Positions 7,171 to 27,158 of a stretch of 64,000 nt of DNA are shown here, in pieces. Numbering within the stretch: position 1 is the stretch's first letter; each line of letters begins with the position of its first letter. The stretch is from an uncultured bacterium (lineage in GTDB: Bacteria > Hydrothermota > UBA3073 > NMUJ01 > CBEVQO01). The stretch spans positions 32,001 through 96,000 of the forward strand of contig CBEVQO010000002.1 of assembly GCA_965552055.1 (NCBI GenBank). Reading direction: 5' to 3'. The notes under the pieces are model-generated. The model did not search any database and was not told the DNA's origin. It was given only the letters and a program-made list of their open reading frames with translations. The position numbers were made by a program, and so were the translations under genes.

Positions 7171-8061
7171 TCATTTAAATTTAAATGAAAAGTCGAGTTT
7201 GTGAGTGTTTTTGAGTTCTGGATGCGTTGAGTAAGCATAATTTATGCCGAAATTCCTGTAATTAAGCCCAAGACCGCAGGTAAATTTGCCATTATCGAGT
7301 CCAAATCTCAACTTCGCTTCTTTAATCATGCTCCACTCGATGCCAGTGTGAAATGTAAAGGGATAACCTGAAGAAAGTATCCTCGATGTCTGCAATGACA
7401 AAATCAACACATCGTATCCTTTCCAGTAAGAGAGAGCTAATCCCACATCTGCAGAAGGTTTGAGTTTATCCGTATATCCTGTGTTCCACTTTATCCTTGT
7501 GAAAATGTCAGAAATTCTTATTCCTGTATAAATTCGCAAAGCAGAAGCAGGTAAATGTATTTTTGGCGCAGAATAGAAAATGCCAAAGTTAAAACCAGCT
7601 CCAAAGCCTTTTGACCTGTGCAACTCCATTCTGTAAAATTTAAGGGTTATACCTGCAGAAAAATCTTTTATTTTATGTCCAATACTTAAATTGTATTCTT
7701 CTGTCAAAAATTTCGCAGTGCCGAGATAGACAATTTCTGGGTAGTTCGTTCCCGGTAAAGTATCGCCTGATGTAGTTTGTTGCCATTCCGTGCTTACCCT
7801 TATTAGCCCAAATCCCATTGGTATATTTCTAAATCTTTTACAGATAGCGATATAATCATATTTTGTCTGTGCAGGAAGCTCTGTATGCATGTAAAGTATT
7901 TCTCCGTGATAAAGTTGAGTTAATGCGGATGGATTGAAGATTACGGAGTTTACATCATAAAGTGCACAGAATGCATTGCCGAGTGCCGAAGGTCTTGCTC
8001 CTGTCCCCACATTCAAATAATCAAAATTTGTTCCCCATGCTATCAAAAATATCAATAACAT
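7171..8061 (-). CDS. PorV/PorQ-like outer-membrane beta-barrel (T9SS-associated family)
   Basis: GARPSALGNAF and FNPSAL N-terminal motifs, amphipathic strands, aromatic C-terminal strand; GGAGGTG RBS. Confidence 0.8.
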   Translation of the reverse strand: MLLIFLIAWGTNFDYLNVGTGARPSALGNAFCALYDVNSVIFNPSALTQLYHGEILYMHTELPAQTKYDYIAICKRFRNIPMGFGLIRVSTEWQQTTSGDTLPGTNYPEIVYLGTAKFLTEEYNLSIGHKIKDFSAGITLKFYRMELHRSKGFGAGFNFGIFYSAPKIHLPASALRIYTGIRISDIFTRIKWNTGYTDKLKPSADVGLALSYWKGYDVLILSLQTSRILSSGYPFTFHTGIEWSMIKEAKLRFGLDNGKFTCGLGLNYRNFGINYAYSTHPELKNTHKLDFSFKFK

Positions 8062-8070
8062 ATCACCTCC

Positions 8071-11000
8071 TTACTTTATAACCGCTATCTTCCAGATTGA
8101 TTCTGCACTTTCCTCCTCTGTCTTCGCTATCACTTTACAGATGTAAACTCCATTGAGCACGATGTCGCCAGCAAAGTTCCTGCCATCCCATGTAATATCC
8201 AGCCTGCCACTTAATACGGGTATTTCCTCGCTCCATATGAGATTGCCTGCAAGTGTATAAATCTTAACTTTCACCTCTGCTGGCTTATTCACCTTCACCG
8301 CTATTTTGGCTGTATTTCTCAATGGATTGAATGGATTTGGATAACTCGCAACTTCAACATTCAAAGGCTCATCCACTGTGAATATAGAAATCGGCATTTT
8401 TACAGCTCCAAATTCAGGTAATTTGAAGCGCTGAACCCTGTCATTGTTTCTGTCTGCTACATAAATCTCTTTTACAACATCACCTTCATAGCAAAGCGAA
8501 ATGCCACAGGGTTTGTTGAATCGCCCCGGTTCTTTTCCAAATTCTCCAAATATCAGTAACCTGTTTCCAAATCTATCGCACATAACAATTCTATCCGCAT
8601 TCCTTTCGCAAATCCATATATTCTTATGTCTTGAGATTTCAACATCTGCGGGATAATCAAAATTCTCTATTTCCATAACCCTGAATGCCGTATCAAATAA
8701 GTTCACATAGTATTTAACAACTTTGCCACTGCAGGCAAGGCATGTGAAAATGTAAGGGCTGTCAACTCCAACTCCTTCACATTTATGTGCAGGAATCGTA
8801 AATACAATGTTTGCAGAATCATCAAGGAATGTTAGCCTATCCCAATTTCTTTCTGCTACAACTATGTAATCGCCATAAAAGTTTATACCTTTTGGATGAT
8901 TTAGTCCCGTTGCTGAATAAACTTCATTTCCTGACAAATCAAATCCAAGCACAGTAAGATGCGTATGACCCCACCACAATGTCGTATAAATTATTTCTCC
9001 ATTGAACCTTACAGCATTTGGATGATGCAAACCTGTTATTTCTCCAACAAAATTACCCCAGTAATCAAAGTATGCAATCCTCTTATTGTTTCTGTCTGCT
9101 ACATAAATCCATGAGTTTCCATCTGGTAAAATGTGCACACCTTCAGGTTTATGCAGACCTGTTATTGCGAGGTCAAATTGTGGCTCACAGCGAAAGATTA
9201 TCCTTCGAAATTCAGAAGTGTTTAACACAACATCCTGTGCTGTTAATCTCAAAACATAAATTCCGTCGGATAAATCTTTTGCATTGAACCAGCCAAGGAT
9301 TGTGTCTATCATCTGACTTTTGCCCTCGGAGATGATTATCCAGTCGGATGGTGAAATTCCCTCTCCATACTCTAATTTCCACCATGCAAAGTGAACATCA
9401 CTTACCCTTCCATAAACCGGCACATTTTGGTTTACCATGCAGGACTCTGTTGGTGAGATTATAAAACATTCAGGCTGTGTATCATCCAGTATAAATTCAT
9501 GGGATTTTACATCTTCTGTGTTTTCCACATTGTCAACCGCATAATGGGAGATTGTGTGTATGCCATCCTGTCCCTGCAAGCCCCAATCTTCCAGAGTGAA
9601 TACAAAGTGAGTATCCGGTATCTCCTGCCATGGCATGGAATCCACTCTATAAACTATCTTTTGCACGCCCGATGCAACATCTGCGGATAATGGGTCTTCT
9701 GCTCGCAATGTGAAATCAGTATGCGATGTGATAATAGTTGAATCACCATAGCTATAAGAAGGTGTGCCAGTTATCAGTTCAGAAACAGGCGGTGTATCAT
9801 CCACTGCTAGTGATTTTTCCTTTGTTTCTTCACGATTACCGAGTTTATCAACTCCATAGTAGTAAAGTGTATGCAAGCCTTCACCCCATTCAGCGAGTGT
9901 GAATGTTGTCTCTGCAACATAAATCCTCTTTTGTGATGCATCGCACCACCAGTAGCCAGTATCTACTCCGCATCCTTCGTCCGTTATTGTGAGAGTTAAA
10001 TCCGTATGTGATGTAATGTACATTGGATTGTAGCTGTATCTGGGTTCACCGATTGTCAGTTGGCTTACAGGTGGTGTGTTATCGAGGTAAACCGTGATTA
10101 TTTTGTGTCCTTCTTCATTTCCAATGTTATCAATTGCCCAGTATTCAATCTGATATTCTCCATCTTCTCCTGTTATTGTGAATGCCACGCTATCGCCTAA
10201 AATTACATTTTCCAAACCATTTATCATGTAGTGAATTTCTTTTACTCCGCTTGATGCATAACTTATCACTGGGTCTTGTGCTTTAAGTGTTATTTTAGTG
10301 CTTGATGTTAGCCACAGCTTGCCTTCTTCATCCTGATATTTTGGTTCACCGAATGTGATTTGTGTTTGAGGCGGTGTTTCATCGATTATAACTTCTTTTT
10401 GATTTACATCTTCTGTATTCAGGACATTATCTTTTGCATAATGGTAGATTGTGTGTAGTCCATCTTCTCCTTGCAAGCCGAAATCAGCAAGTGTAAACAC
10501 AATTTGGGTATCACTAACAGATTGCCATTTATTTTCATCCACTTTATAAATTATTTCTTTAACTCCTGATGCTACACCTGCAGAAACAGGGTCAATCGCC
10601 GATATTTTTAAAGGTGTCTCTGAACGCACAAATATCATATTTTCTGCTTCATATCGTGGTTCTCCTATTTCAATATTTGACACAGGCGATGTATTATCAA
10701 CATAAATTGTCTGGAATTCGGTTCTTTCCGTATTTCCAAGATTATCCACAGCATAGTATTTTACATTGTAAATTCCCTCCGATGGCAGAGTGAATTCTCC
10801 TCCCTCTACCCAGTATCCTGCAAAGTTGTAGTATCTGCTTTTCACTCCACAGCCTTCATCTATTGAGAAAATCATAATCAATGAATTAGAAGTCACAAAT
10901 CTTTTACCATCAATCAAAATAGTAGGTGGCTCGAAAGTAAGATGTGAAGAGGGTGGTGTATTGTCGAGGTAAACAATGGTATCAATGGTTAAACTTCTAT

Positions 11001-14000
11001 GTCCGAGATTGTCGAAAGTCCAACAAATTATTGAATACTTGCCGTCTTTCCTTGCAATAATGTTATAAACAATGCTATCAGAAAATGTTGAATCAGCATC
11101 AATCTTTGTCGTATTATAATAAACTTCGTAATTAATTTCTTTTACACCGCTTGCAATTCCATTTATAATGAGGTCTTCCGCTTTCATGATAATATCTGTT
11201 TGAGAAGTAATCCACATTTTATCGCTTACATATTTTGGCAAGGTTATTGTGATTTGTGCAACAGGAGAAGTATTGTCAATCCTTACAATTTGTGATTTTA
11301 TATCTTCTCTGTTTTTCGCTCTATCAACGCTATTGTAATAAATTGTGTATTCCCCATCAGGATATTGTAATTTGAAGGAATAAGGCAACAAATCAGTGGT
11401 AAGTGCATGAGTTATGCCATTTATCTTGTAGTATGTTGTATCAACTCCGCTTTTATCATCCCATGCGGAAATTGTTATTTGAGTCGTAGAGTCTATATAA
11501 GGTGGTGAGCCGTAATTTGGTGTGCCAATGGATATCTCCGTAACAGGTGGAACAGTATCTTCTATTATTTCAATTGAGAATGCAATTGTTTGATAATTTT
11601 CTGCATAATCCCTGGCTGTAATGTGGCACATGTAAATCCCTGCTGGTAAAACCTTTCCAGAAAAATCTTTACCATCCCAGATTTCGGTATAGCTGCCTTC
11701 TTTTAGATCAAAATAAGATTTATGATAAACACCTGCTCCTATCGGGTTCTCAATCATAATTTCTACAATTTTACATGATTCGGATAAAGTGAAATGGATA
11801 TAGGTTTCTTCTCCTGTTGAAGGCATAAAAGTAGTGGGTTCTGCATAAGCAGTTATTTGAGGAGGCACCCTATCCACCAGCCAGTAGCCTGTCGTATCCG
11901 AACGATTACCCACTTTATCATAAGCATATATCTGGAAGAGATATATTCCATCTGGAGCATTTATAGGAATAAACAAAGTTTCTTCCGTTGAAATATTAAA
12001 TAAATCTGATTGCTCAATGTCACCGAATGAATTAAATCTCAAGTAATAAATTTTTCCTGCTTCATTTAAGTGAACTTTGAGCGTATCATTCTTATTGGCA
12101 TTTACTATTACAACATTTTTGTTTATCCAAATTAGAGGTGGAGAATTATCGTAGGTAACTTTTGCTATTCCTACAACGCAATTTCTTATGCCTTCACCTT
12201 CAAAAGGCGATTCTATTCCTTTCATAACCCTTACACCGTGTCGCAGTGCATGAGCATTTCCGGCAAAAATTATATTTTTTCCTTTGAATAACTTTACCTT
12301 TTTGGCAAAATATCCATAAGCATCGGTAACTACACTTACAGTCTCTGCGATAATATTTGAACTGGGAATAGAATTATCTGACTGAAAGTCAGGTTCATTT
12401 ATGTTAAACGAAGTTGAAGATAAAGTAAATGTTTTAGATACTTTTTGGGATGCTACTGCTTTTAATGCCTCGTAAATATTTGTAGCTGGGTCGGTTATGA
12501 CAAGTAAAAGGGTATCCATTGGTCTCCAGTGCCCTTTTATCGTTATCGATTCTTCCTTTGTGTCATAGCATTTGTAGATTACGGGACGCAAAGTATCGAC
12601 TTCATCTTTTTCCATTATTGCAAAATGTTTCGCAGGTAAGTCACCAAAAATTATGGAGTCTTCCGGAGGAATAGAATCTTCTGGAGGAAGTTCAGGTCCA
12701 CTAATTAACATTGGCGAAACTGTACTGTATCTCGTTGTTAAAGTATAAATACTATCTTGAAATACGGGGGAACCTGGTGTTAATGGCACAGGTTTTCCTT
12801 CTTTTGTTATTGCATAAATTTTAAGGTCATTCGGGTCGATGCCGTAATAATCAACTTCTTCAGCAGTGTATTTATAAGTGAGTGTCGGCAAAATATTGAA
12901 TTTGATTTCAGCTGGCAAGATTTGAATTACAGGGTCAGAAATATACATGCTGTAAGTATCTGTAAAGACAATCTCTGGTTTTACTCTCCTTAGTCTAATT
13001 ATTGTGTCATCTATTGCATTTGACGCTATATTTAGCTGAGCCCTGTAATAAGGTGTATTCGCAAGTCCTCCTTCTGATGTCACTATGTCTCCGATGTAAA
13101 AATCTTTTACTTTTCGTAGAACAGGTCCTACAAATTCTTGAACAGGATTAACCCCTTGCTTTATGTTTTGTTGCACTGGTTCATATAAGTCCATAATTAT
13201 TGTTGTTTTACCGCATACTTTCGTTGCATCGAGGTAAGCAAGTTCTCCCGATTTTGGATGCATTATATTTTCTGTTAATTCAAATATTTTTCCGTTATTG
13301 AAGGCATACATTTTATATCCATATCCTGATGCCGAGCCACAAATAGGTATTAAGGCATAAGGCAAAGAAGTATCTAAGAAGTGCTCTACTTTGAAATAAT
13401 CAAAAAGATTTTGACCGAGATTTTCTGCATTAATGTTAATTAAAGTATCTTCTGAATATCTGGATATCAATCGCAAATCTTTATGTGGTTTGCCAGTGAT
13501 ATCATGAATTTTCACATTCCATTCAGTTATTTTGAGATACGGATTTGGCTCATTTCCGCAATCCCAGAAAGTAGCTTTTACATCTTTACCTCCTGCAGAA
13601 ACTGTTTTATTATATCCTTCTCTGAATAAAATTTTGTCACTTAATCCATGTTTTCTAAAGCCTTTTGTTTTATCTGTAAATTTCTCTTTTAGCCAGCCGA
13701 TATGGTGTGTGTAAGGGTCTTTATTCATTGTCCATGCGGGATTCCAGTTTTTAACAGTGCAAATTATGCAGGTGTCTATATCGTAAGAAAGATAAGCATC
13801 GACATATTGAGAATTTTGCTTTACTATAGGCTTTGAGAAAGAAAATCCATGAGGCACCACACTATCAGGAATGGAACACATTTGACGCCAGTAAATTTTT
13901 ACAGGGTTGTAATTGCCATTTATATTTGGCATTATTATACTATCGTATTGAGCAACGCATTGCCATTTTGAATGAGGACTATCAGGGTCACACTTTGCTT

Positions 14001-17000: not shown

Positions 17001-18177
17001 TATCGCTTATATGGAAGACGAACGATAAGTTTCCCTTTCTTGCGGTGAAAGTTTCGATGGTATCTTTTGAAGGTTTTACGATTTCGATTTCCGGTGGTGT
17101 ATCATCCACATAGAAAGGCACTCTGTAATCTACATCATTACCTAGATTATCCGATACTTTTACTTTTACAGTGTGTTTGCCTTCTGCGAAACCCGACAAA
17201 GGAACATTTGCTATAAGTAGTGTATCGTAAGTGGTGGCGGGGTAAACTGTGGCATCCACGAAAAGAGTTTCAGAGCCCGCCATTATGCCCTCCGGGTCTT
17301 TATAGATTGCTTTGACAAACAATGTGCTATCACTCCTAAAAGCAGAATTCCACTTTGGTGATTTTATGTGAAGCGAAGGAACCTGTGAGTTTATCTGGAC
17401 TACACCTGCAAATTCTTCAACGGGAGGATTTGCCTCATCCCATGCGTGTATGTAAATGTAGTAAAAGCCATCGGGTAGTTGTGAGCCATCATTTCGTTTG
17501 CCATACCATGTGAAAAATGTGTCTCTGGCATATGCGGTGTTTGAGATAAATATAAGATTATCATTGCTATCATAAATCCTGCACCAAGTACTGCACTGCT
17601 CAGATGCATTAAAATGAATTTCTACTCTATCATCAAAACTAATAATGTTTTTTGTAAAGTAAATATCATAAATTGTCGGTTTTTCGCAGTCAATCTTAAC
17701 GATAAAATAATTATATTTTAAAATTACAGGGTACCAATATATATCCTTCCCTTTACTTCTTTTCTTAAGCTCTCTGTAATTCCATCCATAATGGTTATTA
17801 ACTTTAACGGGACCGTACACTTTTCTTTTATAACCCTCCCACCACCATTTACCAGGCTGTTTTAAAACACATAAATATACGCCATCTTTCACTTTAACCT
17901 TTTTATCAGGATAAAATCGCCTGTGTTCCGCTCCCTTATTAGTAATAGGATAGAATTGATAATAATAGTAATCTGACATCCAGTTTCGTGTCAACTTATA
18001 GGATGGCGTAAACCAGCGTTTCTTAGTGTAATATAAGCGCAATTTCTTTCCTTCCCACCGGTATCTATAATCGGACCATGTTAATAAAGGAATTTTTAGA
18101 GTATCCTTATACCCGTCCCAATTCGGAGAGAACTTAGGTAATTCTAATGTATAAATTAAAAAGAAAGGCTCCTCTTC
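8071..18177 (-). CDS. Giant surface protein, C-terminal part: FlgD-Ig/Big domains, about 7 DxTPP Ig-like repeats, NHL propeller, T9SS/FlgD-like C-terminal domain
   Basis: 3323-aa ORF whose frame is open up to 18177 (EEEPFF...FSPNWDGYKDTLKI); WDGxxxxG motifs, IYVADRNN NHL blades, terminal YPNPFNP...VKIYTLAG...NGVYICKV; no RBS or signal peptide of its own. Confidence 0.85.
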   Translation of the reverse strand, partial: EEEPFFLIYTLELPKFSPNWDGYKDTLKIPLLTWSDYRYRWEGKKLRLYYTKKRWFTPSYKLTRNWMSDYYYYQFYPITNKGAEHRRFYPDKKVKVKDGVYLCVLKQPGKWWWEGYKRKVYGPVKVNNHYGWNYRELKKRSKGKDIYWYPVILKYNYFIVKIDCEKPTIYDIYFTKNIISFDDRVEIHFNASEQCSTWCRIYDSNDNLIFISNTAYARDTFFTWYGKRNDGSQLPDGFYYIYIHAWDEANPPVEEFAGVVQINSQVPSLHIKSPKWNSAFRSDSTLFVKAIYKDPEGIMAGSETLFVDATVYPATTYDTLLIANVPLSGFAEGKHTVKVKVSDNLGNDVDYRVPFYVDDTPPEIEIVKPSKDTIETFTARKGNLSFVFHISDNLDSLLPSPKDNAIYIKIKDSTGNIIRTDVLKRCYYNLAQWYLWDFKDNTGNKILNGRFWLIASIKDKAGNMAKDSVEFKLDSEPPHITIVQTLEPNPFTSKDTVMRILFTTNEDVKFIAKFTDKDSITYTYTVPLKNYPPTICTLYLKKGFWGYLPDQLYKLTLYAEDKVGNDTAISSDIVLGTDYLRVDRTSPQVVSSACVPYITDETGLTELRITLSESKDYIENRATDSIIVIHKGEVLFRETATPGSTSLTIYKEIKIDTTRVGPKEVEIVVKDTWGNVDTAIAQVCYMSLGTYIAKPEEGDTCAKGCVMIYGVATDPQINAVPFTYFELKWKRKSESSWHAESIWVIPALRDTAYPNRGLKEVGSENLLGYFKCDTGRYQIMLASYEEDSSCLADTVEIYVKDTLLPQIYIDTLFVELIDEDGDNEFSPGIDEIKIVFRMGGAFCDADIDVIDWRGLSVWHQSEENLLPYKYYTIYWDGRKEFGFVTGGNYTIRLTAYGKANVDVKEILINVKSNLKITKSEVNPQEFSPMDTSLEFNVVTFSFKVNQDAHVDVWIEKDGDTIIKLLQNKDYYGDLEGEVSWDGVYGGAIADTGEYWFKIRAIPWNYCDTAWDSASFRVIPAIPIVEGDFYIPDEYITGYLHGNPVYDADPEFKWYATAEGEYYPPQQFKIEDTIKGYKWRNIKWSVAIKAQELWYGLKNTMKKAGTRTVNGGTNPFDAADVDESEWRYFTPHSDRVICRIKGYIGNSGDITWWLKKVSNDQIIYYGHKDGDITSYEDYYNIIDTINVDSGEVYKFKTRAAASTGTARCSMFVYYKKLDPRLSEYFKGIEGSLSYSGSSTSVRNCFITENETVFCSYIGLNAIAYISDMYDNIVWSKTLVWRWKKDTLILTPGQQYKFFISAKWPAGGGCLLISSKRKWYNDTIAGNQQSFTKIEEFETYPFTPVHGGRMTPQYKYFARIDNIIDSSCWLDTTVTYWETTINGVTVRFYSSGNVEAKCDPDSPHSKWQCVAQYDSIIMPNINGNYNPVKIYWRQMCSIPDSVVPHGFSFSKPIVKQNSQYVDAYLSYDIDTCIICTVKNWNPAWTMNKDPYTHHIGWLKEKFTDKTKGFRKHGLSDKILFREGYNKTVSAGGKDVKATFWDCGNEPNPYLKITEWNVKIHDITGKPHKDLRLISRYSEDTLININAENLGQNLFDYFKVEHFLDTSLPYALIPICGSASGYGYKMYAFNNGKIFELTENIMHPKSGELAYLDATKVCGKTTIIMDLYEPVQQNIKQGVNPVQEFVGPVLRKVKDFYIGDIVTSEGGLANTPYYRAQLNIASNAIDDTIIRLRRVKPEIVFTDTYSMYISDPVIQILPAEIKFNILPTLTYKYTAEEVDYYGIDPNDLKIYAITKEGKPVPLTPGSPVFQDSIYTLTTRYSTVSPMLISGPELPPEDSIPPEDSIIFGDLPAKHFAIMEKDEVDTLRPVIYKCYDTKEESITIKGHWRPMDTLLLVITDPATNIYEALKAVASQKVSKTFTLSSTSFNINEPDFQSDNSIPSSNIIAETVSVVTDAYGYFAKKVKLFKGKNIIFAGNAHALRHGVRVMKGIESPFEGEGIRNCVVGIAKVTYDNSPPLIWINKNVVIVNANKNDTLKVHLNEAGKIYYLRFNSFGDIEQSDLFNISTEETLFIPINAPDGIYLFQIYAYDKVGNRSDTTGYWLVDRVPPQITAYAEPTTFMPSTGEETYIHFTLSESCKIVEIMIENPIGAGVYHKSYFDLKEGSYTEIWDGKDFSGKVLPAGIYMCHITARDYAENYQTIAFSIEIIEDTVPPVTEISIGTPNYGSPPYIDSTTQITISAWDDKSGVDTTYYKINGITHALTTDLLPYSFKLQYPDGEYTIYYNSVDRAKNREDIKSQIVRIDNTSPVAQITITLPKYVSDKMWITSQTDIIMKAEDLIINGIASGVKEINYEVYYNTTKIDADSTFSDSIVYNIIARKDGKYSIICWTFDNLGHRSLTIDTIVYLDNTPPSSHLTFEPPTILIDGKRFVTSNSLIMIFSIDEGCGVKSRYYNFAGYWVEGGEFTLPSEGIYNVKYYAVDNLGNTERTEFQTIYVDNTSPVSNIEIGEPRYEAENMIFVRSETPLKISAIDPVSAGVASGVKEIIYKVDENKWQSVSDTQIVFTLADFGLQGEDGLHTIYHYAKDNVLNTEDVNQKEVIIDETPPQTQITFGEPKYQDEEGKLWLTSSTKITLKAQDPVISYASSGVKEIHYMINGLENVILGDSVAFTITGEDGEYQIEYWAIDNIGNEEGHKIITVYLDNTPPVSQLTIGEPRYSYNPMYITSHTDLTLTITDEGCGVDTGYWWCDASQKRIYVAETTFTLAEWGEGLHTLYYYGVDKLGNREETKEKSLAVDDTPPVSELITGTPSYSYGDSTIITSHTDFTLRAEDPLSADVASGVQKIVYRVDSMPWQEIPDTHFVFTLEDWGLQGQDGIHTISHYAVDNVENTEDVKSHEFILDDTQPECFIISPTESCMVNQNVPVYGRVSDVHFAWWKLEYGEGISPSDWIIISEGKSQMIDTILGWFNAKDLSDGIYVLRLTAQDVVLNTSEFRRIIFRCEPQFDLAITGLHKPEGVHILPDGNSWIYVADRNNKRIAYFDYWGNFVGEITGLHHPNAVRFNGEIIYTTLWWGHTHLTVLGFDLSGNEVYSATGLNHPKGINFYGDYIVVAERNWDRLTFLDDSANIVFTIPAHKCEGVGVDSPYIFTCLACSGKVVKYYVNLFDTAFRVMEIENFDYPADVEISRHKNIWICERNADRIVMCDRFGNRLLIFGEFGKEPGRFNKPCGISLCYEGDVVKEIYVADRNNDRVQRFKLPEFGAVKMPISIFTVDEPLNVEVASYPNPFNPLRNTAKIAVKVNKPAEVKVKIYTLAGNLIWSEEIPVLSGRLDITWDGRNFAGDIVLNGVYICKVIAKTEEESAESIWKIAVIK
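9480..11562 (-). repeat. Intragenic tandem Ig-like repeats (about 100 aa x7)
   Basis: Units start DTVPP/DNTSP/DNTPP/DETPP/DDTPP and contain GV..I.Y...DG.(H/Y).I.Y.A.DN.GN.E. Confidence 0.8.
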
Positions 18178-20208
18178 TTATCCTTCCTCCTCTTCATCTC
18201 CTTCCTCTATTTCTCCTAATCGGAATTTCATCATCTCCCAGAAAGTTGTATCATGAAGGTTATAGCATACATTGAGATGAAGAATTATGGGACTCCATCC
18301 ATCCCAGTCGAGTATGAAAAAAGAGTTAATACAAGTATCACTTTTACCTGCTCCTATTGTATCGTAAATAACTCTATCAGCCCATGGTATTACTTCTGCG
18401 TCACCAGAATCTACAGATAGATTTGCGAGCACACCAGATATCCTTTCACTCGCATTATTCTTTAAAATAGGTTTTAAAAAATAAACATAACCGTAATCAT
18501 CTATATAGCCAGGTCTTATGATAATGGATTCAGCGAGAGGCACAGACATTTTGCCAAAAGAAATTATTCTATTTGTCGGCAAGAATACTTTTATACTTTC
18601 TGGCTCTAATTTCGTGTTACTATAAATCTTAAATTTAAATCCTAACTTTTGTGGTAGAAAGGTATCTCTAATTAAAGTTTTAAATGGCGAAACATTAAAT
18701 TTCACGCTCTCAGGAGCGAGCTCTCCGTAGTAATAAGAGGAAAATTGGTCATTTATTTTAATAAAATTTTCATATCCTTCCGCTACATTGAGTTCTCCCG
18801 ATACATAAGCGGTTTCAGAAGATTTATTTATAATACCTGCATGTATGCAAAGAGACTCTGCACGCTCAGGTATTAAGTCGCCATCACCTGCAATTTCCTT
18901 AAATCTGAAAGCCCATAGTTCAAAAATCCTTGGATTGCCTCTAAACTTAATGGTATCAATGCATTCATTACCAGCAAGGTCGTAAACATTTCGGCATATC
19001 AAAATATAATCTGTATCCTTTAGAGGAGTTTCTAATTTAAACTCATATTCATACCATAAATCAACACAGAATATAGAATCATTGTCAGTGTATATGTAGT
19101 ATTTCACAGTATCTATGTGTAATATTATTGTATCAATTTTTACTTCTCCCTTATAAGCACATGGAAAGATTCTGTAATTATTAGGGTCACAAGCAGAAGG
19201 CCCCATTTCCTCGGAAAACCACACCCTAAAACCATACTTCCATATCCAGTAGATGACTTGCATCCAAGGAGACCAATTGTCGATAATTACAGGTATTTCC
19301 ACGGTATCTGCGTTATTCCTTATATCTGCTGCAATAATGCGCAAAGTATATCTGCCATCATCAATTGATTCTGTGTTCCATGCGGAATTGTAATTTCCGT
19401 AAGGGTTAAATGGTTTGTTTGTAACGAAATAATAATATTTGCTCCAGTCACTTTTTATAGTGTCATATACAAAAGGCAAAGCGTCTTTATCGGGCACATT
19501 GTCAAATACTATCCAGTTTTGATATTTTGGAGTAGTGCCTTTCAATACCTCTACACCTATTTTGTAAACCCCGCACTGATGAGCAGGCCATTCAAAAGGA
19601 TAGCCATTCTCATCAACCCTCGGGTCACCTGCATGTACTACTATATCGATTTCACCCGATAAATCCTTGCGATAAACAGTATCGCCATAGTCAGATTGTC
19701 GGAATTCAATGGCAAAAATTTCGGGTTTTCCATTATCTACAAATGGATATAAACCAGTATCCGAATTGCAGCGGAGAGGGTTATAAATTGGTCTAATGCA
19801 ACCTGGTTTGCGCTCCTCAAAGTGCAAATGATTCGCTTCATCAATCCAACCTAAAATTGTTTGACCTGCATAGATAGGTTTATTTATTGTTATAATAGAA
19901 GTATCAGGGTTAGGTATTATATGGTAATATTTAAATCCGCGTTTGGTGTAAATAGAGCGACGTTTTATCTTGTCAATTGTATCATCCACAACAGGATAAA
20001 CAGCAGTATTGTATGGCTCTGCAATATCTACACCTTTATGGAAATGCATAGAATGAGTGTCACCCTGAGCATCAACATAAGTAGGTCTATACTCTCCAAG
20101 AGTTGAAGTTATTTTATGTTGGCTCGAGAAGGGGTAAATAGGCCAATCATAGGCATAAAGAGAAGATAGGGATATTATCCCAAGAAATGTAAAAATTTGC
20201 CGCTTCAT
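18178..20208 (-). CDS. Giant surface protein, N-terminal part: signal peptide, M23 peptidase domain (variant C), Ig-like domains
   Basis: HKGVD (HxxxD), YYH, HLH motifs; ends GDEEEEG-TAA in frame with the downstream giant ORF. Confidence 0.85.
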   Translation of the reverse strand: MKRQIFTFLGIISLSSLYAYDWPIYPFSSQHKITSTLGEYRPTYVDAQGDTHSMHFHKGVDIAEPYNTAVYPVVDDTIDKIKRRSIYTKRGFKYYHIIPNPDTSIITINKPIYAGQTILGWIDEANHLHFEERKPGCIRPIYNPLRCNSDTGLYPFVDNGKPEIFAIEFRQSDYGDTVYRKDLSGEIDIVVHAGDPRVDENGYPFEWPAHQCGVYKIGVEVLKGTTPKYQNWIVFDNVPDKDALPFVYDTIKSDWSKYYYFVTNKPFNPYGNYNSAWNTESIDDGRYTLRIIAADIRNNADTVEIPVIIDNWSPWMQVIYWIWKYGFRVWFSEEMGPSACDPNNYRIFPCAYKGEVKIDTIILHIDTVKYYIYTDNDSIFCVDLWYEYEFKLETPLKDTDYILICRNVYDLAGNECIDTIKFRGNPRIFELWAFRFKEIAGDGDLIPERAESLCIHAGIINKSSETAYVSGELNVAEGYENFIKINDQFSSYYYGELAPESVKFNVSPFKTLIRDTFLPQKLGFKFKIYSNTKLEPESIKVFLPTNRIISFGKMSVPLAESIIIRPGYIDDYGYVYFLKPILKNNASERISGVLANLSVDSGDAEVIPWADRVIYDTIGAGKSDTCINSFFILDWDGWSPIILHLNVCYNLHDTTFWEMMKFRLGEIEEGDEEEEG

Positions 20209-21035
20209 TTTCGCCTCCTTTTTGGTTTCAATATTTTTATAATTTTTCCTTTTTCATTTAAAATAATTTCAACATCTTTGTGTACTAGCATTAAGTAAAG
20301 AGTATTATTCTTATTAAATAATTTCATACGATAAGGACTTCCTTCTAAAACTTTCTGAAAAATTAATTTAAAGCTACTATCGTATAGAGCCACATAAGTA
20401 ACTTCATTTTTGTTTACTCTCCCTCCACAGTATATCGCAAACTTACTTCCATCCTGAGTGAATCTAACGAAATCCACAAGAAAATCGATTGGTGGGTTTA
20501 AAAGCTGTTCCATATTTAATTTTTGTACTTTATTAGGAGATAAAAAATATAACCGAGGCACATGCTCGTCATAAGATATTCCTACTGCATATCTTCCCGA
20601 TGGAGATAAATCAATGTCAGCTGCTCCCGATTCTATACTCCAACATTTTTTTCCTTCTGTCGTATATACTTTAAACTCTGAACCAAAAATACCTTCATAT
20701 CCTATTTCAAGCGGAATAGTCAATCCAATATATTTCCCATTATGCGTGATCTGCACTCTACCTTTTACTTTTCTGTATTTCTCTTTTGGCGGCGAAGGAA
20801 ATGCTTTCGGCGGTAAATATGCCATACCCCATCTTGAAACTGTCTTTTTCACCTTGCCTGTTTCATCCAAAAATTTTATATCGTCGGATGTCACCACTGC
20901 TTTCACAACTGGCTTACCTTTTTCTTCCACTATCGCCATTTGCTCAATCTTTACTCCGAGTTTATTCTCCCAGTATGTCTTTAAACTATCTCTAACATGT
21001 TTCGGTACCATCAAAAATAAAACCAACATTAACAT
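20205..21035 (-). CDS. Exported beta-propeller-like protein C (candidate immunity/inhibitor)
   Basis: Short hydrophobic N-terminus; FKVYTTEGKKCWS, LSPSGRYAVG, FTQDGSKF WD40/PQQ-like blades; ATGA overlap with the M23 gene. Confidence 0.75.
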   Translation of the reverse strand: MLMLVLFLMVPKHVRDSLKTYWENKLGVKIEQMAIVEEKGKPVVKAVVTSDDIKFLDETGKVKKTVSRWGMAYLPPKAFPSPPKEKYRKVKGRVQITHNGKYIGLTIPLEIGYEGIFGSEFKVYTTEGKKCWSIESGAADIDLSPSGRYAVGISYDEHVPRLYFLSPNKVQKLNMEQLLNPPIDFLVDFVRFTQDGSKFAIYCGGRVNKNEVTYVALYDSSFKLIFQKVLEGSPYRMKLFNKNNTLYLMLVHKDVEIILNEKGKIIKILKPKRRRK

Positions 21036-21799
21036 ATCACACCTCCTAATTCAATCACTGATTTATTTAATTCAATTATTTTTATGTCAATGTCAATTAA
21101 ATTTTTCTCAGGTATGGTGTTGAATATCACATTTTTGTATCTGCGAATCACACTGTTTGATTTTAAAATTTGATATTCCAGCGAATAAACACCGCACATG
21201 CCTGAATCTCGTGGAATATGTCCACCTGGTGCAACCCTGAAGTCCTTACAGCAAACAGTTATGTCAACTTTTCCGGATAAATCGTTGGGATTAAGCATGC
21301 TATCCGTTCCTTGCCTCCAGAATCTTATACTGCCTTCCGCAATCACAGGCGGAGTAGAATCAACAAAACCATCCAAACCACCTTTACGCAATGGATTACG
21401 CAAACCCCGAAGCTCCTCAAAGTGGAGGTGGTTATAAGCATCAATTTGACCAATAGTGTCGTTTGCTGAAATGAACATACCTTCTTCTAACGAAAAAGTG
21501 TCAATTCCGATTACCACACTTTTGATGTGAGCATAAGTAAATTTTCCTATTGAATAATACCTTTCCCCTCGTTTTGTTACTATCCCGCTATCAACTGCTA
21601 TAACAATTTCTCCTGAATCAGCATCAATATCGATACCTCTATGAAATCTAACATAAGGCGGATTAGAACCTCTCATGCCTCGAGGTTCTCCTAATGTCGA
21701 GTTAATCTTGCGTACCGTGTCTGCAGGAAAAGGCCATTTATACCCAGAAACTTCTAAAGAAACAAAACAGAGCATAATTATAATTTTTCTTTTGCTCAT
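21029..21799 (-). CDS. Truncated secreted M23 peptidase cassette B
   Basis: Signal peptide, WP...INSTLGEPR, HRGID, YAH, HLH; last ~20 codons read through the next unit's promoter. Confidence 0.8.
   Translation of the reverse strand: MSKRKIIIMLCFVSLEVSGYKWPFPADTVRKINSTLGEPRGMRGSNPPYVRFHRGIDIDADSGEIVIAVDSGIVTKRGERYYSIGKFTYAHIKSVVIGIDTFSLEEGMFISANDTIGQIDAYNHLHFEELRGLRNPLRKGGLDGFVDSTPPVIAEGSIRFWRQGTDSMLNPNDLSGKVDITVCCKDFRVAPGGHIPRDSGMCGVYSLEYQILKSNSVIRRYKNVIFNTIPEKNLIDIDIKIIELNKSVIELGGVIC
21031..21090 (-). repeat. Cassette promoter/leader repeat, copy 3 (diverged)
   Basis: TTGACA-N15-TAAATA...GTGATTGAATTAGGAGGTG; -35 box starts 55 nt before the ATG, as in copies 1 and 2. Confidence 0.8.
21259..21430. 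repeat. Direct repeat shared by M23 cassettes B and A (matches 23123-23294)
   Basis: About 98 bp identical (21259-21356 vs 23123-23220), then high similarity through the HLHFEE codons. Confidence 0.9.
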
Positions 21800-22941
21800 T
21801 TTCCCTCCTCTCTATGAATTGAAATTATCGAATATTTTCTTTTTTCTAAATTCAAAATCATAAATTTATTAGAAGATATCGGCATTAGTCGAATGCAAGA
21901 GGGAATTATCTCATACGAAAAAAGTATTTTTTTATCAAAGTTTAGAATATGAAAGTATCTTTTTGGACTCCCAAAAGAATATCCAACAAAGATTATATCG
22001 TTCCCTACTCCTTGCATGCTTTTAATTGCATACGAAAATCGTCTTTTTTTAACATAATGAGCACCTTTTATTATTTTACTTGTATATATTAAATTGTGTT
22101 TTTCTAAATCTATCAAATAAAATTCACCCGTCATAAATGCCAATGTTAAAATTTTTATATTGTCATTAAAATAGAAATAAACCCTACCTTTTCCTCCTTT
22201 TAATTTTAAATCACTTGCAATATTGCCTAACATATCAAGAAAAATTATTTTTTGCCCTTCTCTAGACGCAGATGAAATACACACAATGCATATTTCTTCT
22301 TCCAATACCTTCACCCCCGTGATTAGACAGTTTATTTTTTTATTCCATTTTAAATTTTTATTTTCAAAAAATTTTATTCGCCCACTTAGTGTAGTCACAA
22401 CAAAATATTTACCATCTGAGGAAAAACTGATATCTCTCCACGAATTTTTTGTGGGGGGCTCTTTATCTATTTCAACTTTATTACTCTCAAGAATAAATAA
22501 AGGCTCTTCAAACATGGGTAATCCCACTGCATACTCACCGTTTGGCGCTAAATAAATATCCATGTCTTCTGGATGTGGATCAATTGTTACACTCCATAAT
22601 TCGTTACCATTAATATCAAAAACTTTGAAAATGCCAGCCATATTTAAATATCCCTTGGGTTTAGCCCAAATTTCGTGTACCCCTATGTATTTGCGATTAT
22701 CAGACAGTCTAACTTTATGATACTTCTTCTCAAATTTGTATTCTTTTATCTCCTTCCCTTTTACATCTAACCATACAATTTTATCTTTACCGATAAGCAC
22801 TCTTAAATTGCCAAATGAATCCACTATTGCATCTTGCACATCAAAATCAAATTCCCTTTCCCATACTACCTTCAACTCGCCCATATCCCTTATCTTGAAT
22901 TCTGCGGCTCCTAAACTTATTAGCAGGATAACACTTAACAT
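21796..22941 (-). CDS. Exported beta-propeller-like protein B (candidate immunity/inhibitor)
   Basis: MLSVILLISLGAAEF N-terminus; FDINGNELWS, LAPNGEYAVG, ISFSSDGKYF blades. Confidence 0.8.
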   Translation of the reverse strand: MLSVILLISLGAAEFKIRDMGELKVVWEREFDFDVQDAIVDSFGNLRVLIGKDKIVWLDVKGKEIKEYKFEKKYHKVRLSDNRKYIGVHEIWAKPKGYLNMAGIFKVFDINGNELWSVTIDPHPEDMDIYLAPNGEYAVGLPMFEEPLFILESNKVEIDKEPPTKNSWRDISFSSDGKYFVVTTLSGRIKFFENKNLKWNKKINCLITGVKVLEEEICIVCISSASREGQKIIFLDMLGNIASDLKLKGGKGRVYFYFNDNIKILTLAFMTGEFYLIDLEKHNLIYTSKIIKGAHYVKKRRFSYAIKSMQGVGNDIIFVGYSFGSPKRYFHILNFDKKILFSYEIIPSCIRLMPISSNKFMILNLEKRKYSIISIHREEGK

Positions 22942-22996
22942 GGTGCACCTCCTAATCCAATCATTAAATTATTTAATTCAATTACCAGAGTGTCAA
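22844..22996 (-). repeat. Cassette promoter + leader + first ~33 codons, copy 2 (matches 24729-24881)
   Basis: 153-bp near-identical direct repeat at offset 1885. Confidence 0.92.
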
Positions 22997-23681
22997 CAAA
23001 AAGATTTATTTCATCAGTGAATATTAATCTAAATTCATACCTCCATATCCAATAAATGTACCATATCCAAGAAGGATCATTGTCGATAATTACAGGTATT
23101 TCCACGGTATCTGCGTTATTCCTTATGTCAACTTTTCCGGATAAATCGTTGGGATTAAGCATGCTATCCGTTCCTTGCCTCCAGAATCTTATACTGCCTT
23201 CCGCAATCACAGGCGGAGTATTATCAACAAAATCGTCTAACCCACCATCACGCAAAGGATTACGCAAACCTCGAAGCTCCTCAAAGTGGAGGTGAGGATG
23301 CTTAAGGCTGGCGATTTTTCCGATGGTATCACCTATGCTGACATATTTTCCTATCCAAATCATCGTATCCATCGTATCAATATGCACATAAGAGAAATCA
23401 CCTATTCTTACACGATACTGTTCAACCCATACTCCATTTTCCCATCGAGAAATATCAATGATAGTGTCAACTATGTTATTACTCACAGAAATTACAGGTG
23501 TCCCTTTTGTAGCATTTATATCAACACCCTGATGAAAGCGGTAATAGGGCGGATTCGGAGGCCTTGGTTCACCGAGAGTGGAGTTTATCTGACAAACACT
23601 ATCTCCGGGAGGTATTGGCCATGGATAGCCAAGAAGTATAAAAGGAAACATTAACACGATGTATAGAAGATAATGCTTCAT
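22935..23681 (-). CDS. Truncated, internally deleted secreted M23 peptidase cassette A
   Basis: Signal peptide, HQGVD, YVH, HLH; 48 bp (23079-23126) identical to 19276-19323 of the full gene; tail reads through the next promoter. Confidence 0.8.
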   Translation of the reverse strand: MKHYLLYIVLMFPFILLGYPWPIPPGDSVCQINSTLGEPRPPNPPYYRFHQGVDINATKGTPVISVSNNIVDTIIDISRWENGVWVEQYRVRIGDFSYVHIDTMDTMIWIGKYVSIGDTIGKIASLKHPHLHFEELRGLRNPLRDGGLDDFVDNTPPVIAEGSIRFWRQGTDSMLNPNDLSGKVDIRNNADTVEIPVIIDNDPSWIWYIYWIWRYEFRLIFTDEINLFVDTLVIELNNLMIGLGGAPC

Positions 23682-24826
23682 TTGCCCTCCTTTTTTAAAG
23701 GTACTCCCAGAAGAAATATTCTATCAAAAGGTTTTTCCCTCGATTTTATTTTTTCACGCCAACTTTTTGCTGTTCTTCGCGGGAATCCGTAAACTTTATT
23801 CTCGATCCAAATAATTTTACCAACATTTTCTGGGAAACAATATTTTTGTATAATTTTATTTCGATAATCCAAGTATTTTATTCCTCTTCCTCCTATAATA
23901 ATAAACTTTTTTATTTTTGGAGAGAACTTTATCTTTGTGCCTCGTTTGGAGGATTGCTCCCATACGAGTTCACCTGAAAACATATTATATAAAAACAACA
24001 TTGGAGAATTGCCTGTCCAATTTACACATAATATTGATTCACTTTCATCTATTGCAAAATCTGCGCTTCCTAGCCAAAGTTTCCTTTCCCATAATAAATT
24101 CCCATCAGCGTCAAATACTCTTAATATATCTCCTCCTCTGCCCACTATGTAATCTTTAAATACTTTACCTTCCTCTATTCCCGGTCTTTTTCGCCAAATT
24201 TCCTTACCTTCGCTATCATATTTTAATAACCAACCGCCTAGCGAAATGATACAGTAATCCCCTTCTTCAGTAAAATCTAAAAACACATACTCCGTTTTAT
24301 AAGAAGGTAAATCCTTATAGGGATGCAATTTTTTTACAATCCCTTTAGACGACAAAATCCATATAGCAGAGGGCGCAAAAGCACCAGGCAATCCTACTGC
24401 CCATTTACCATTTGGAGACGGGATTATCTTCCACGGTGGTTCCTCTAAATAAACATCTTCCTGTATATCTCTTTCTAAATGCAGTGACCACAATAAATTT
24501 CCTTCAGTGTCTATTAAATCAAACCAACCTTCATAAACATATTCTCCGGATTCATCGCTTCGAGTACGATAAAGTCCAATGAACTTTTTATTTTTAGTTA
24601 TTTGTGTTGCTCCTTCGAATTTCTTTATCACTTTACCTGACTTGTCATAAAATCTTACTTCACCTCTCCCAACAGCAAGTTTTTTGTTACCCTTTTCATC
24701 GGTTATTATCTCATAAAGATAATTGGGGAAATCAAATTCCCTTTCCCATACTACCTTCAACTCGCCCATATCCTTTACTTTGAATTCTGCGGCTCCTAAA
24801 CTTATTAGCAGGATAATACTTAACAT
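23678..24826 (-). CDS. Exported beta-propeller-like protein A (candidate immunity/inhibitor)
   Basis: Almost the same first 33 aa as protein B, then divergent PQQ-like blades (DTEGNLLWS, DSEGKEIWR, DADGNLLWE). Confidence 0.8.
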   Translation of the reverse strand: MLSIILLISLGAAEFKVKDMGELKVVWEREFDFPNYLYEIITDEKGNKKLAVGRGEVRFYDKSGKVIKKFEGATQITKNKKFIGLYRTRSDESGEYVYEGWFDLIDTEGNLLWSLHLERDIQEDVYLEEPPWKIIPSPNGKWAVGLPGAFAPSAIWILSSKGIVKKLHPYKDLPSYKTEYVFLDFTEEGDYCIISLGGWLLKYDSEGKEIWRKRPGIEEGKVFKDYIVGRGGDILRVFDADGNLLWERKLWLGSADFAIDESESILCVNWTGNSPMLFLYNMFSGELVWEQSSKRGTKIKFSPKIKKFIIIGGRGIKYLDYRNKIIQKYCFPENVGKIIWIENKVYGFPRRTAKSWREKIKSREKPFDRIFLLGVPLKKEGK

Positions 24827-24881
24827 GGTACACCTCCTAATCCAATCACTAAATTATTTAATTCAATTACCAGAGTGTCAA
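24729..24881 (-). repeat. Cassette promoter + leader + first ~33 codons, copy 1
   Basis: Near-identical to 22844-22996. Confidence 0.92.
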
Positions 24882-24887
24882 GAAAAA

Positions 24888-27158
24888 TTAAATTGTCAAA
24901 TCTACTCTCAAATCTGCTCTTAGTTCGAGTGTTTTATAAACTGGGCGGGAAGATTTTGCGTATCTACCCTTTAAATTCAAATTTATCCTCTTAATCTTCG
25001 ATGTAATCTTTATCTGGGTCTCTTCCAGTGTTCGCCGTAAGCCTCCCGTTGAGTAACAGTAAGAATGCGATAACTCAAAGTTAACTCCTTTGAAATTTGC
25101 CTTTATACCTGGCATAATCTTTAAATTATACCATATTGCCACTTTATCTTTCTGCAACAAAAAAGGGTCCTGTCCTTCTGTTCTGTCAAAACTGAAAATC
25201 GCCTGTGTGCTTATAAAATCTGTAATTTTTCTCCTCACTTCAAAATTTATACCATGGGATTTTGTCTTCGTTGGTAAAGAATCCGGCAACTGCCAGAAAT
25301 ATCCAACATAGTCATAATATGACCGTAATGTCAGAAATTCACCTCTATAAACAACTCCTGATTTTACCTCAAATTTCCTCTCTACCTTATATAACTCAAC
25401 CGTATCCCCGGGTATCCCAGACGCTACTGCAAATCTAAACAAACCCTGTTTCCTCAAAGAATCCACCTGTAACTCAAATCCCCACCTTTCACCAAAACCA
25501 TAATTGAAAAGAATTTGCCTCTGTATAACATAATTATCATAAAGTTTGCGATTGGGATTTAATTCATCAAATCTCAATGCCCTTTGATTGAAATGCAGAA
25601 AGGATAATTTTGAGTCTTTGAAAGGACTTAAATTTACAAAAATCCTCAATCCAGATAAATCTTTAACTCTGTTTCCAGCGGATATTGTATAGGAAAATGT
25701 AGGTATTACCTGTAGAGATATTATCCTGTGCGGTTTTACAGATGTTATCCATCTGTTTGTGAACTCCTCTGAACCGCCATACAATGTCTGTGTCTTTGCC
25801 GTGTGATTTCCATCCACCTTTATCCAACTTGCAGGTAAAATTTTGTATTGAAGTGAAAAACTAATCTGGCGTTTTTCTGATTGAAGTAAACTTCCTGTCA
25901 GACGCAATTTCCAGAAAGAAAGATTGAGAAAAGCACTTGCACTGTAAACATCATATAAAATATCGTGCCTGTAAGAGAAATCAAAATTAAAGAGTTTGAG
26001 ATTCAGTGAAAATCCCGCATTGTAAACCGTTTGTGAGCGAACACTATCCCTTATTAGCCATTTTCTACCTATACCTGCAGAAACTTCATAAAATTTGTGA
26101 GAAAATGAAAAATTTGCAGAATGCTCTTTTTCTTCCTGATAGATTGAATCCGAACTTTGTTTAATCCATATATTTTTCTGCGATATTTTAATCTTTTTGA
26201 AGTCAAAATCCTCTGATAAAGTTTGCTGATAGATATTTATATCCTCTTTTTCTTCTTTTGACCATTTATGTGAAATTGTTAAGAAATTGAAGAAAAGGAA
26301 TTGCGTTGATAGTTCAAGTTTTCTTGAATTGGGGAATATCCCCGTGCCTATAGGTGAAAAGCCAGATTCTACTTTTTGATAACTGCCTGATAATTTGAAT
26401 TTCCAGAAATTTATTTTTGTCATCGTATTGTATGCTCTGGCTGATTCTGATTGTGCGATGGAGGAATTGAGATTTAGAGGTTTAAAATTAAAGCCAATGT
26501 CTATGCCAGCAACTCTTTTCCCCTTTAATGTATCTTTTTCTTCTGCAACAGCATCTGCTATTTTGATAAATTTGTATTGAGTTTCAAGCATTAGACCTTG
26601 CAATCTGTTTCCCGCTACCGGCTGATACTCGTATTCTACTTCGATTAATTCATCTTCTGTGATTATCCTTTGAAATGTAATCCATCCTCTTTCGTAATTA
26701 ATAGTATAATCTTTGTCACGCTCTAATTTTTTCAGATTAAGTCCTTTGCCAACTCGCACTTTTTCGGAATTGTAAACCACATTTTGATGCCGTAATTCAT
26801 AAGGACCCACAGAATTTTTACCCCATATTCTTTCAAAAGCGGGAATGCCCTTTGATATTGATTTTATCACTTTCGCTGAAAATTTGCCGTCTTTTCGATA
26901 AAATTCACCAGTTGCTATTATCCCCATTATTGATTTTGATGAAAGGACAAGTGGAATTAAACTTGCTTCACAATCCCCCAATTCTGCTTTGAGATTTTGC
27001 TTTTGAACTTAGAGATAATAGCGATTGAGATAAGGGAAGGCAGATTGCTGACTTACATTTCCCTCTATTTTTATCCCATGAAGCTGTCCATCGATTGTTA
27101 GAAAAAGTGCATCATAGCGTACACTGTGAGGGAAAAATTCGGATTTATATCCCTGAAC
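24888..27158 (-). pseudogene. Large outer-membrane beta-barrel protein (SprA-like motif), 5'-truncated with an in-frame stop
   Basis: 697-aa ORF with DYTINYERGWITF...IEVEYEY and many amphipathic strands; frame continues upstream past a TAA at 27009-27011 (LFLTIDGQLHGIKIEGNV) up to the neighbouring gene end; no signal peptide. Confidence 0.6.

Follow-up and report, generated by a model that had tools for sequence, protein, structure and literature searches.

The window analysed here is a 64,000-nucleotide (nt) stretch of DNA from an uncultured bacterium of the phylum candidate division WOR-3 (contig CBEVQO010000002.1, positions 32,001 to 96,000, of the 15-contig assembly GCA_965552055.1). On its minus strand, which carries all of the window genes described below, lie three tandem units (A, B and C), in each of which a promoter and ribosome-binding site (RBS) block is followed by a gene encoding a β-propeller protein and by an overlapping gene encoding a protein headed by a peptidase M23 domain. 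The 3′ side of the three units is occupied by a reading frame of ~4,040 codons, which encodes immunoglobulin (Ig)-like, OmpL47 and NHL domains together with a sorting domain of the type IX secretion system (T9SS), and then by a gene resembling those of the barrel proteins PorV and PorQ. Here we describe the architecture of this locus, its recurrence in related genomes and what both suggest about the relationship between the propellers and the M23 heads.

Organization of the locus

Unit A opens with a junction block, J (24729–24887), which contains a promoter-like sequence (TTGACA-17-AATAAT), a GGAGGTG Shine–Dalgarno sequence and the first ~33 codons of propA. The propA gene (23678–24826) encodes a 382-amino acid (aa) propeller with a predicted signal peptide, which matches the hidden Markov model (HMM) of the propeller family at E = 1.3e-65. 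It is followed by M23A (22935–23681), encoding a 248-aa protein that lacks the C-terminal sorting domain (CTD), matches Pfam PF01551 (E = 2.9e-9) and carries the sequence HQGVD at residue 50 and HxH at residue 130. Unit B has the same composition, with a J block (22844–23002) that is a 96% match to that of unit A, propB (21796–22941; a 381-aa propeller, modelled as eight-bladed) and M23B (21029–21799; 256 aa, likewise CTD-less; PF01551, E = 1.5e-8; HRGID at residue 53 and HxH at residue 124). Unit C begins with a diverged copy of J (21029–21103), of which 50–55 nt are 84–88% identical to the J blocks of A and B. Its propeller gene, propC (20205–21035), encodes 276 aa; the HMM match spans profile positions 29–267 only, and the alignment shows that the protein is ~110 C-terminal residues shorter than propA and propB. 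M23C (18178–20208, including its TAA stop codon) encodes 676 aa comprising a signal peptide, the M23 head, Ig-like domain 2 and further domains, with HKGVD at residue 57 and HxH at residue 127. In every unit, the propeller stop codon and the M23 start codon overlap by 4 nt, and the stop codons of the short M23 genes, M23A and M23B, overlap the start of the following propeller gene by 7 nt. The promoter-like sites in the J blocks of A and B are the two best σ70-like matches in 17900–25100 (11 of 12 positions); the scan as a whole did not exceed chance (26 matches against 29.6 expected), and only the location of these two sites is used here. Thus, the three-unit layout that a first-pass annotation of this DNA had described, with a shared promoter and leader, a propeller gene and an overlapping signal-peptide M23 gene with intact HxxxD and HxH motifs, is borne out by the open reading frames (ORFs) and motifs.

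The same annotation had described a giant protein continuing from unit C. The frame of M23C does run into the stalk frame (8071–18177), but a single in-frame TAA (18178–18180), located inside a poly-glutamate linker (GDEEEEG, stop, EEEPFF), splits M23C from it. The first start codon of the stalk frame, a TTG at 18042, would give a protein of 3,323 aa without a signal peptide of its own; in the window as assembled, the signal peptide and the sorting domain are therefore on separate polypeptides. The homologous genes of a close strain (L065), of a paralogous locus on contig C1 of the same genome and of the WOR-3 genome G030 are uninterrupted where the window has the TAA, as is the corresponding gene of a further unit, E, described below. 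Downstream of the stalk frame is the PorV/PorQ-family-like outer-membrane barrel gene (7171–8061; 296 aa), and upstream of unit A is a 697-aa gene (24888–26981), which has only a weak, chance-level family match and forms the 5′ boundary of the variable region.

Mosaic structure of the M23 genes

Units A and B are nearly identical at their edges and strongly diverged in between. Their J blocks match over 159 nt at 96% identity (24729–24887 versus 22844–23002), and a second block of 172 nt matches at 94% (23123–23294 versus 21259–21430), starting right after the HxH motif. Overall, the A/B flanks are 82–98% identical and the centres 37–60%, in line with the earlier description of strongly differing M23 domains and propellers between units. 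The near-identical flanking blocks described at the same time hold for A and B, but the resemblance to unit C is much weaker, M23A and M23C having 101 nt in common at 83% identity. M23A is a mosaic, in which its own head is followed by a block common with M23B (block 2), a block common with M23C (block 3) and a tail read from J, and M23B consists of an M23 head and part of domain 2, again with a tail from J. Because both genes end by reading through the GGAGGTG Shine–Dalgarno sequence and ATG of the next unit (giving the C-terminal residues GGxPC), the C termini of M23A and M23B are best explained as recombination scars rather than designed ends.

The source genome contains five units, A to E, rather than three. 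Unit D (G000:C2:1-1631, G000 being the source genome) lies at a contig start, where its M23 gene runs off the end, and unit E (C2:25857-30442) encodes a 399-aa propeller and a 1,129-aa M23-headed protein with a Por_Secre_tail domain. Although 25 kb apart, D and E show the pattern of A/B again, bounded at the same places. A 5′ block of 213 nt at 96% identity includes the promoter, the RBS and the first 30 propeller codons, a 3′ block of 79 nt at 91% starts just after HxH, and the centre is 33–63% identical. Taken over both pairs, the flanks are 82–100% identical, the heads 54% (A/B) and 53% (D/E) identical, and the propeller bodies 27% (A/B) and 25% (D/E) identical. Upstream of unit D there is, in addition, a 108-nt, 95% identical copy of the M23E interior, a scar left by one more unit.

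Recurrence across WOR-3 genomes

The propeller profile has matches at E ≤ 1e-5 in 120 of 272 WOR-3 genomes and at E ≤ 1e-20 in 28 of them; the weaker matches may be generic propellers. Among the best 30 propeller loci, a gene of the M23 subfamily is immediately downstream in 22, is not found there in 4 and would fall beyond a contig end in 4. When the five loci used to train the profile are excluded, an M23 gene lies directly 3′ of the propeller gene in 17 of the 21 assessable loci, and starting from the M23 genes instead, a propeller gene is upstream in all 8 of the 8 loci that could be assessed. The propeller–M23 pairing proposed in the first-pass annotation thus appears as a tight gene adjacency in 22 of the 26 assessable loci. 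One of the four misses, in a genome of the same order as that of the window (G002), has a 73-aa ORF overlapping the propeller end (L026:1585-1806), which begins like an M23 head, with a signal peptide and G-F-I-W-P, then breaks off, and is likely a decayed head.

Tandem arrays are present in at least five other genomes (G134, G055, G173, G158 and G035), and in all three arrays containing a long M23 gene, short CTD-less M23 genes are located 5′ of it. The truncation points of the short genes coincide with patches of high identity in G134 (51 nt, 90%), G055 (77 nt, 91%) and G173 (38 nt, 89%), and G158 and G035 repeat entire junction blocks. Such displaced modules therefore keep homology to the main gene, through blocks 2 and 3 in the window and through these patches in the three other genomes. 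A Por_Secre_tail domain is found in four of the five long relatives scanned (that of G030 falls below the Pfam cut-off) and in none of eight short upstream M23 genes; the same scan found none in a 472-aa gene of G025. In total, the same architecture, with scars, is seen in independent assemblies of four other WOR-3 families. At two loci, L055:5713-8549 (G262:C2) and L059:1348-4074 (G025:C87), propeller genes of the family stand as tandem pairs without an adjoining M23 gene.

A close strain and a paralogous locus

The junction-block pattern also found one metagenome contig from a close strain (L065; 4,506 nt). The ends of this contig are 93.4% identical to the 697-aa gene and junction of the window and 97.4% identical to the stalk (window 16443–17399). 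Between these flanks lies a single unit, with a propeller that matches the family profile at E = 1.1e-38 and a head without nucleotide similarity to A, B or C, which shares with the stalk a single open frame, at least 1,015 aa long. Since the head and stalk share one frame in L065, they are normally one gene. The frame also encodes a hydrophobic stretch, VILFIIFVMLF, between head and stalk. A comparison with relatives had been proposed to look for variable 5′ cassettes on a conserved backbone of stalk and PorV-like gene, and such variation is what we observe: L065 has a different, single propeller and head, and other WOR-3 genomes have from one to several units. Together, the mosaics, the scars, the recurrent arrays and this replacement make cassette exchange well supported at the level of sequence.

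On contig C1 of the source genome, a segmental paralogue of the locus (G000:C1:205948-227627; locus L062, C1:204500-224000) retains an upstream gene that is 93.7% identical to that of the window, a PorV-like gene at 96.6% and the last 1,200 stalk residues at 70%. Here, proteins of 3,970 aa and 1,247 aa carry zinc phospholipase C heads, a 417-aa CTD protein is also present, and no propeller is present in the locus. The phospholipase C heads on this stalk thus show that the carrier has exchanged heads between enzyme classes. As a conserved 5′ boundary, the 697-aa flank gene is seen in the window, the C1 paralogue and, over its 3′ end (93%), L065; it may belong to the system.

These observations also bear on whether the array exists as assembled. 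Strain variants could have been misassembled through the shared J block, or the locus could be a dead cluster of pseudogenes; the assembly is in 15 contigs, the repeats are short, strain variants do exist, and the TAA stop and the shortened propC would fit decay. We nevertheless regard this explanation as very improbable. The truncation junctions consist of unique sequence, all six unit ORFs are open with intact catalytic residues, the architecture and its scars recur in independent assemblies of four other families, and the flanks are confirmed by the independent contig of L065.

The heads belong to peptidase family M23

The Pfam Peptidase_M23 profile detects M23A (37.4 bits) and M23B (35.2 bits) above its cut-off of 28.7 bits, whereas M23C has no Pfam match at E ≤ 0.01. 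A profile built from 24 head sequences matches solved M23 enzymes, with 9gy1 at E = 4.9e-10 and also LytM and lysostaphin. The AlphaFold model of M23C residues 1–335 (predicted local distance difference test (pLDDT) score of 84.3, predicted template modelling (pTM) score of 0.83) has M23/LytM domains as its best Foldseek matches (probability 1.00, E = 2.6e-4) and places Ig-like domain 2 after the catalytic domain. HxxxD, the histidine of Y-x-H and HxH are invariant in all 24 aligned heads (H57, D61, H96, H127 and H129 in M23C numbering), and the catalytic motifs are kept in all five heads of the source genome. By motifs, profile and fold, the heads are members of peptidase family M23 of the LytM/lysostaphin type, and peptidoglycan endopeptidase activity is predicted for them. 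As the catalytic domain begins directly after the predicted signal peptide, with a conserved Y-x-W-P, the heads have no propeptide.

Searches for related loci returned no relative when M23C alone was the query and only its own record when the G134 head was used. In three relatives (L028:2607-4100, L037:2595-4091 and L041:2-1390), the head is built differently: the gene that follows the propeller gene encodes ~340 additional residues, which separate the signal peptide from the M23 domain.

The propellers and their predicted association with the heads

The propB model (pLDDT 82.6, pTM 0.84, 33 strands) resembles the eight-bladed propeller BamB (best Foldseek match 4imm, E = 2e-11) and ODA16 (template modelling scores of 0.66 and 0.73), and the family profile matches a WD40-type propeller, Protein Data Bank entry 2ymu, at E = 1.2e-49. 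A BamB-like function was considered and rejected: the fold match is generic, a lipobox is absent and the gene travels with M23 heads. The propellers start with N-terminal hydrophobic leaders, which in most relatives are canonical signal peptides ending in LYAQE, and scans with Pfam and curated profiles detected no sorting domain in them. Among representative proteins, the propeller profile has 160,110 matches at E ≤ 0.001 and 1,857 at E ≤ 1e-30; 88 of the 150 representatives listed are 320–520 aa long, and the weaker matches are indistinguishable from generic WD40/PQQ propellers. Fused propeller–M23 proteins were not found among the 150 listed representatives, none of which was matched by the M23 profile, and four longer ones have no M23 domain in Pfam.

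We modelled one cognate pair, propB residues 14–381 with M23B residues 20–235, by co-folding. The median score was 0.58 (runs of 0.76, 0.58 and 0.57), and the best of three controls scored 0.01. At least 77% of the contacts recur between runs, and the partner pLDDT is at least 68. In calibration, 116 of 157 solved complexes and 2 of 215 mismatched pairs attained the mark applied to such scores; values at or below 0.60 account for 18 of the 157 solved complexes and for both passing mismatches. As the pair was modelled with our own alignments, these counts apply to it only roughly. The model thus lends weak support to direct binding between propeller and head, and to that extent to the cognate inhibitor role that the first-pass annotation had assigned to the propellers.

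Binding would also suit a propeller that is a partner of the head rather than its inhibitor, namely an assembly factor, or a tip-bound adhesin that travels with or docks the M23 head and determines the surface to which it attaches. Propellers are common binding modules, the genes are tightly paired with overlapping start and stop codons, and the co-fold weakly favours binding without giving its location. We consider such a role improbable: a propeller without a sorting domain has no known export route past the periplasm, and propellers also accompany truncated, CTD-less heads that are unable to reach the surface.

The stalk and the putative secretion apparatus

The stalk contains Ig-like domains, six OmpL47-type barrels, FlgD_ig, NHL repeats and a T9SS type A sorting domain. 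The sorting domain scores 35.3 bits with TIGR04183 (cut-off 23), in agreement with the T9SS-type C terminus noted earlier for the giant protein, and just 17.3 bits with Pfam PF18962 (cut-off 27). The downstream gene had been called PorV-like, and its match to NF033709 is indeed full length (profile positions 2–326 of 326; E = 4.2e-22), but the score of 79.1 bits remains under the cut-off of 90. In the T9SS, such barrels act with partners, as in the PorU–PorV and PorZ–PorQ pairs. The source genome encodes a PorU homologue (NF033707, 462.9 bits; cut-off 420), a weak match to SprA_N (23.8 bits, or 29.1 with neighbouring stretches) and 11 matches to the PorV/PorQ family, of which four other copies pass the NF033709 cut-off. 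Several PorV/PorQ-family genes immediately adjoin genes for large CTD proteins (as at C4:124270-125621 and C4:156584-157413), an arrangement suggestive of private barrels for individual cargoes. The longest open frame of the genome, 6,192 codons, is outside the window on the minus strand (C2:293181-311756).

In its signal peptide, N-terminal enzyme, Ig-like spacers, type A sorting domain, PorV/PorQ-like neighbour and PorU homologue in the genome, the stalk system resembles ordinary T9SS cargo. It differs from such cargo in its dedicated upstream propeller gene, its tandem truncated head copies and the strain-level replacement of heads.

Comparison with known polymorphic systems

In the loci of contact-dependent growth inhibition (CDI) and Rhs systems, the toxin domain is C-terminal and the immunity gene lies directly downstream. 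The WOR-3 locus shares with them a long conserved delivery protein with a variable enzymatic end, an adjacent small gene that co-varies with that end, and displaced truncated modules in which a stretch homologous to the main gene survives; moreover, modules are replaced between close strains, as in L065 versus the window. The variable end is also seen in the A/B and D/E mosaics and in the M23 versus phospholipase C heads on a C-terminal stalk that is 70% identical. Orphan toxin–immunity modules are known at CDI (cdiA-CT/cdiI) and Rhs loci (PMC3150448, PMC3967940). The layout is reversed here, with the variable end at the N terminus, the partner gene upstream and the displaced modules on the 5′ side. 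Unlike CDI/Rhs orphans, each displaced head still has a start codon, a signal peptide and a promoter-like site of its own, and export would proceed through Sec and the T9SS; toxicity and immunity are, for the WOR-3 locus, putative.

The T6SS (type VI secretion system) employs peptidoglycan-hydrolase effectors with immunity proteins, such as Tse1–Tsi1, and M23-type T6SS effectors exist; an all-β immunity protein also has precedent among T6SS pairs. Similarly, the WOR-3 units pair a cell-wall hydrolase with a putative neutralizing periplasmic protein. However, there is no T6SS context here, the enzyme crosses the periplasm of its producer and would be surface-tethered rather than injected, and the partner is an eight-bladed propeller of ~380 aa. 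In antigenic variation at pilE/pilS, silent cassettes act by gene conversion, and here too partial copies with short conserved blocks could donate variable segments to an expressed gene; unlike the silent pilS copies, the upstream units are complete small operons, and no switching event was seen among the loci compared.

The TANFOR-domain polymorphic toxins of Bacteroidetes have the usual C-terminal toxin layout, and their export by the T9SS is only speculated upon there (PMC7073777). They resemble the WOR-3 proteins as large polymorphic proteins with signal peptides from a lineage of the Fibrobacteres–Chlorobi–Bacteroidetes (FCB) group, encoded near T9SS cargo genes (PMC7073777). However, their conserved domain is N-terminal, their toxin C-terminal and their immunity gene downstream (PMC7073777), whereas the WOR-3 proteins themselves carry the sorting domain and vary in their N-terminal part. 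A search of the main texts of the full-text literature returned no described family of T9SS cargo that is polymorphic at its N terminus and has both an M23 head and a partner propeller; the nearest account is that of the TANFOR toxins.

A model for cassette exchange and propeller function

We propose that homologous recombination between conserved flanks has probably exchanged the three diverged propeller–M23 cassettes, which precede a giant T9SS-type stalk gene, and that each propeller is probably a periplasmic inhibitor that binds its own head until transport to the surface; taken as a whole, we judge this proposal to have about an even chance of being right. In the proposed sequence of events, the M23 protein would be exported by Sec and would fold in the periplasm without a propeptide, where the co-translated propeller would bind the head and shield the peptidoglycan of the producer. 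The head, made without a propeptide, has to fold ahead of T9SS export, and the propeller would keep it off the producer's wall. The sorting domain would then carry the protein through the T9SS, so that the Ig/OmpL47/NHL stalk would bear the head at its distal tip, close to a dedicated PorV-like barrel. A crossover directly behind HxH or within domain 2 would bring in a new cassette by inserting a segment comprising junction, propeller and head, and the old head would be displaced upstream, truncated after the duplicated homology patch and running into the promoter and RBS of the next unit. A crossover at either of these two places fits every scar seen.

Retained upstream propellers might further protect against the matching heads of neighbours, which would make the system a weapon and not an enzyme only. 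The faster divergence of the propellers, the strain-level swapping and the stand-alone tandem propellers (G262 and G025) speak for attack on living neighbours, and by analogy the stand-alone propellers would fit orphan immunity genes. The H-V-D motif of the L065 head and the want of a known route to the wall of a diderm target, both taken up below, speak against such attack. The inhibitor or immunity role of the propeller, like any antagonism, is what we infer from these patterns. The fuller version of this proposal describes a T9SS-based, N-terminally polymorphic interbacterial weapon of WOR-3, with swappable heads (M23, or phospholipase C in the paralogue) on a common stalk, upstream propeller immunity for each M23 head and 5′ units serving as an immunity archive and as donor cassettes; we put it forward as a tentative and rather doubtful possibility.

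The proteins may instead be surface enzymes for feeding, which digest the peptidoglycan of dead cells or of Gram-positive prey, with the propeller as a transit inhibitor or chaperone required for self-protection alone and the arrays as neutral products of unequal crossing-over among paralogues. An N-terminal enzyme joined to an Ig stalk and a CTD is the usual build of T9SS cargo such as gingipains and chitinases, large CTD proteins are numerous in the genome, the paralogous locus has phospholipase C heads without a propeller, and the short M23 genes are not silenced. This explanation leaves unexplained the replacement of head and propeller between strains with a 97% identical stalk, the faster divergence of the propellers (25–27% identity versus 53–54% for the enzyme) and the stand-alone tandem propellers without an M23 gene, and we think it unlikely.

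Several observations weigh against the proposed exchange-and-inhibitor model. The co-fold covers one cognate pair, with a weak score, no interface and no non-cognate control, and 4 of the 26 assessable propeller loci lack an M23 gene. In the L065 head (L065:2-3046, minus strand), HxxxD and the Y-x-H histidine are kept, but H-V-D replaces the HxH of the 24 aligned heads, and catalysis may therefore not always be needed. For an M23 enzyme tethered at the surface, no route to the peptidoglycan of a diderm target is known to us. The stalk-linked unit C is the most damaged of the units, with its shortened propC and the TAA before the stalk, so the system may be inactive in the source genome. Finally, promoter-like sites, signal peptides and the full set of catalytic residues are preserved in the short upstream M23 genes, whose products could be working periplasmic enzymes rather than leftovers. 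For the same reason these orphans are not silent in the CDI/Rhs sense, which speaks against a simple form of the earlier idea of displaced tips stacked upstream as in CDI/Rhs; the truncated 5′ modules are recurrent, and the layout is mirrored.

Implications

Polymorphic toxin systems are defined by toxin exchange at the C terminus. In the WOR-3 locus, a conserved carrier, a swapped enzymatic end, a co-varying partner and displaced modules amount to the logic of polymorphic toxins, placed at the N terminus; the variable end would be N-terminal because the export signal of T9SS cargo is C-terminal. If the weapon proposal is true, this would be the first toxin–immunity system to mirror CDI/Rhs and the first assigned to the T9SS, and if the propeller is an inhibitor, it would represent a new class of proteinaceous M23 inhibitors. 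The strain-level replacement of heads makes the idea directly testable with cloned pairs. The locus would also provide the first genetic signature tying T9SS cargo to inter-strain conflict, in WOR-3, a phylum known only from metagenomes.

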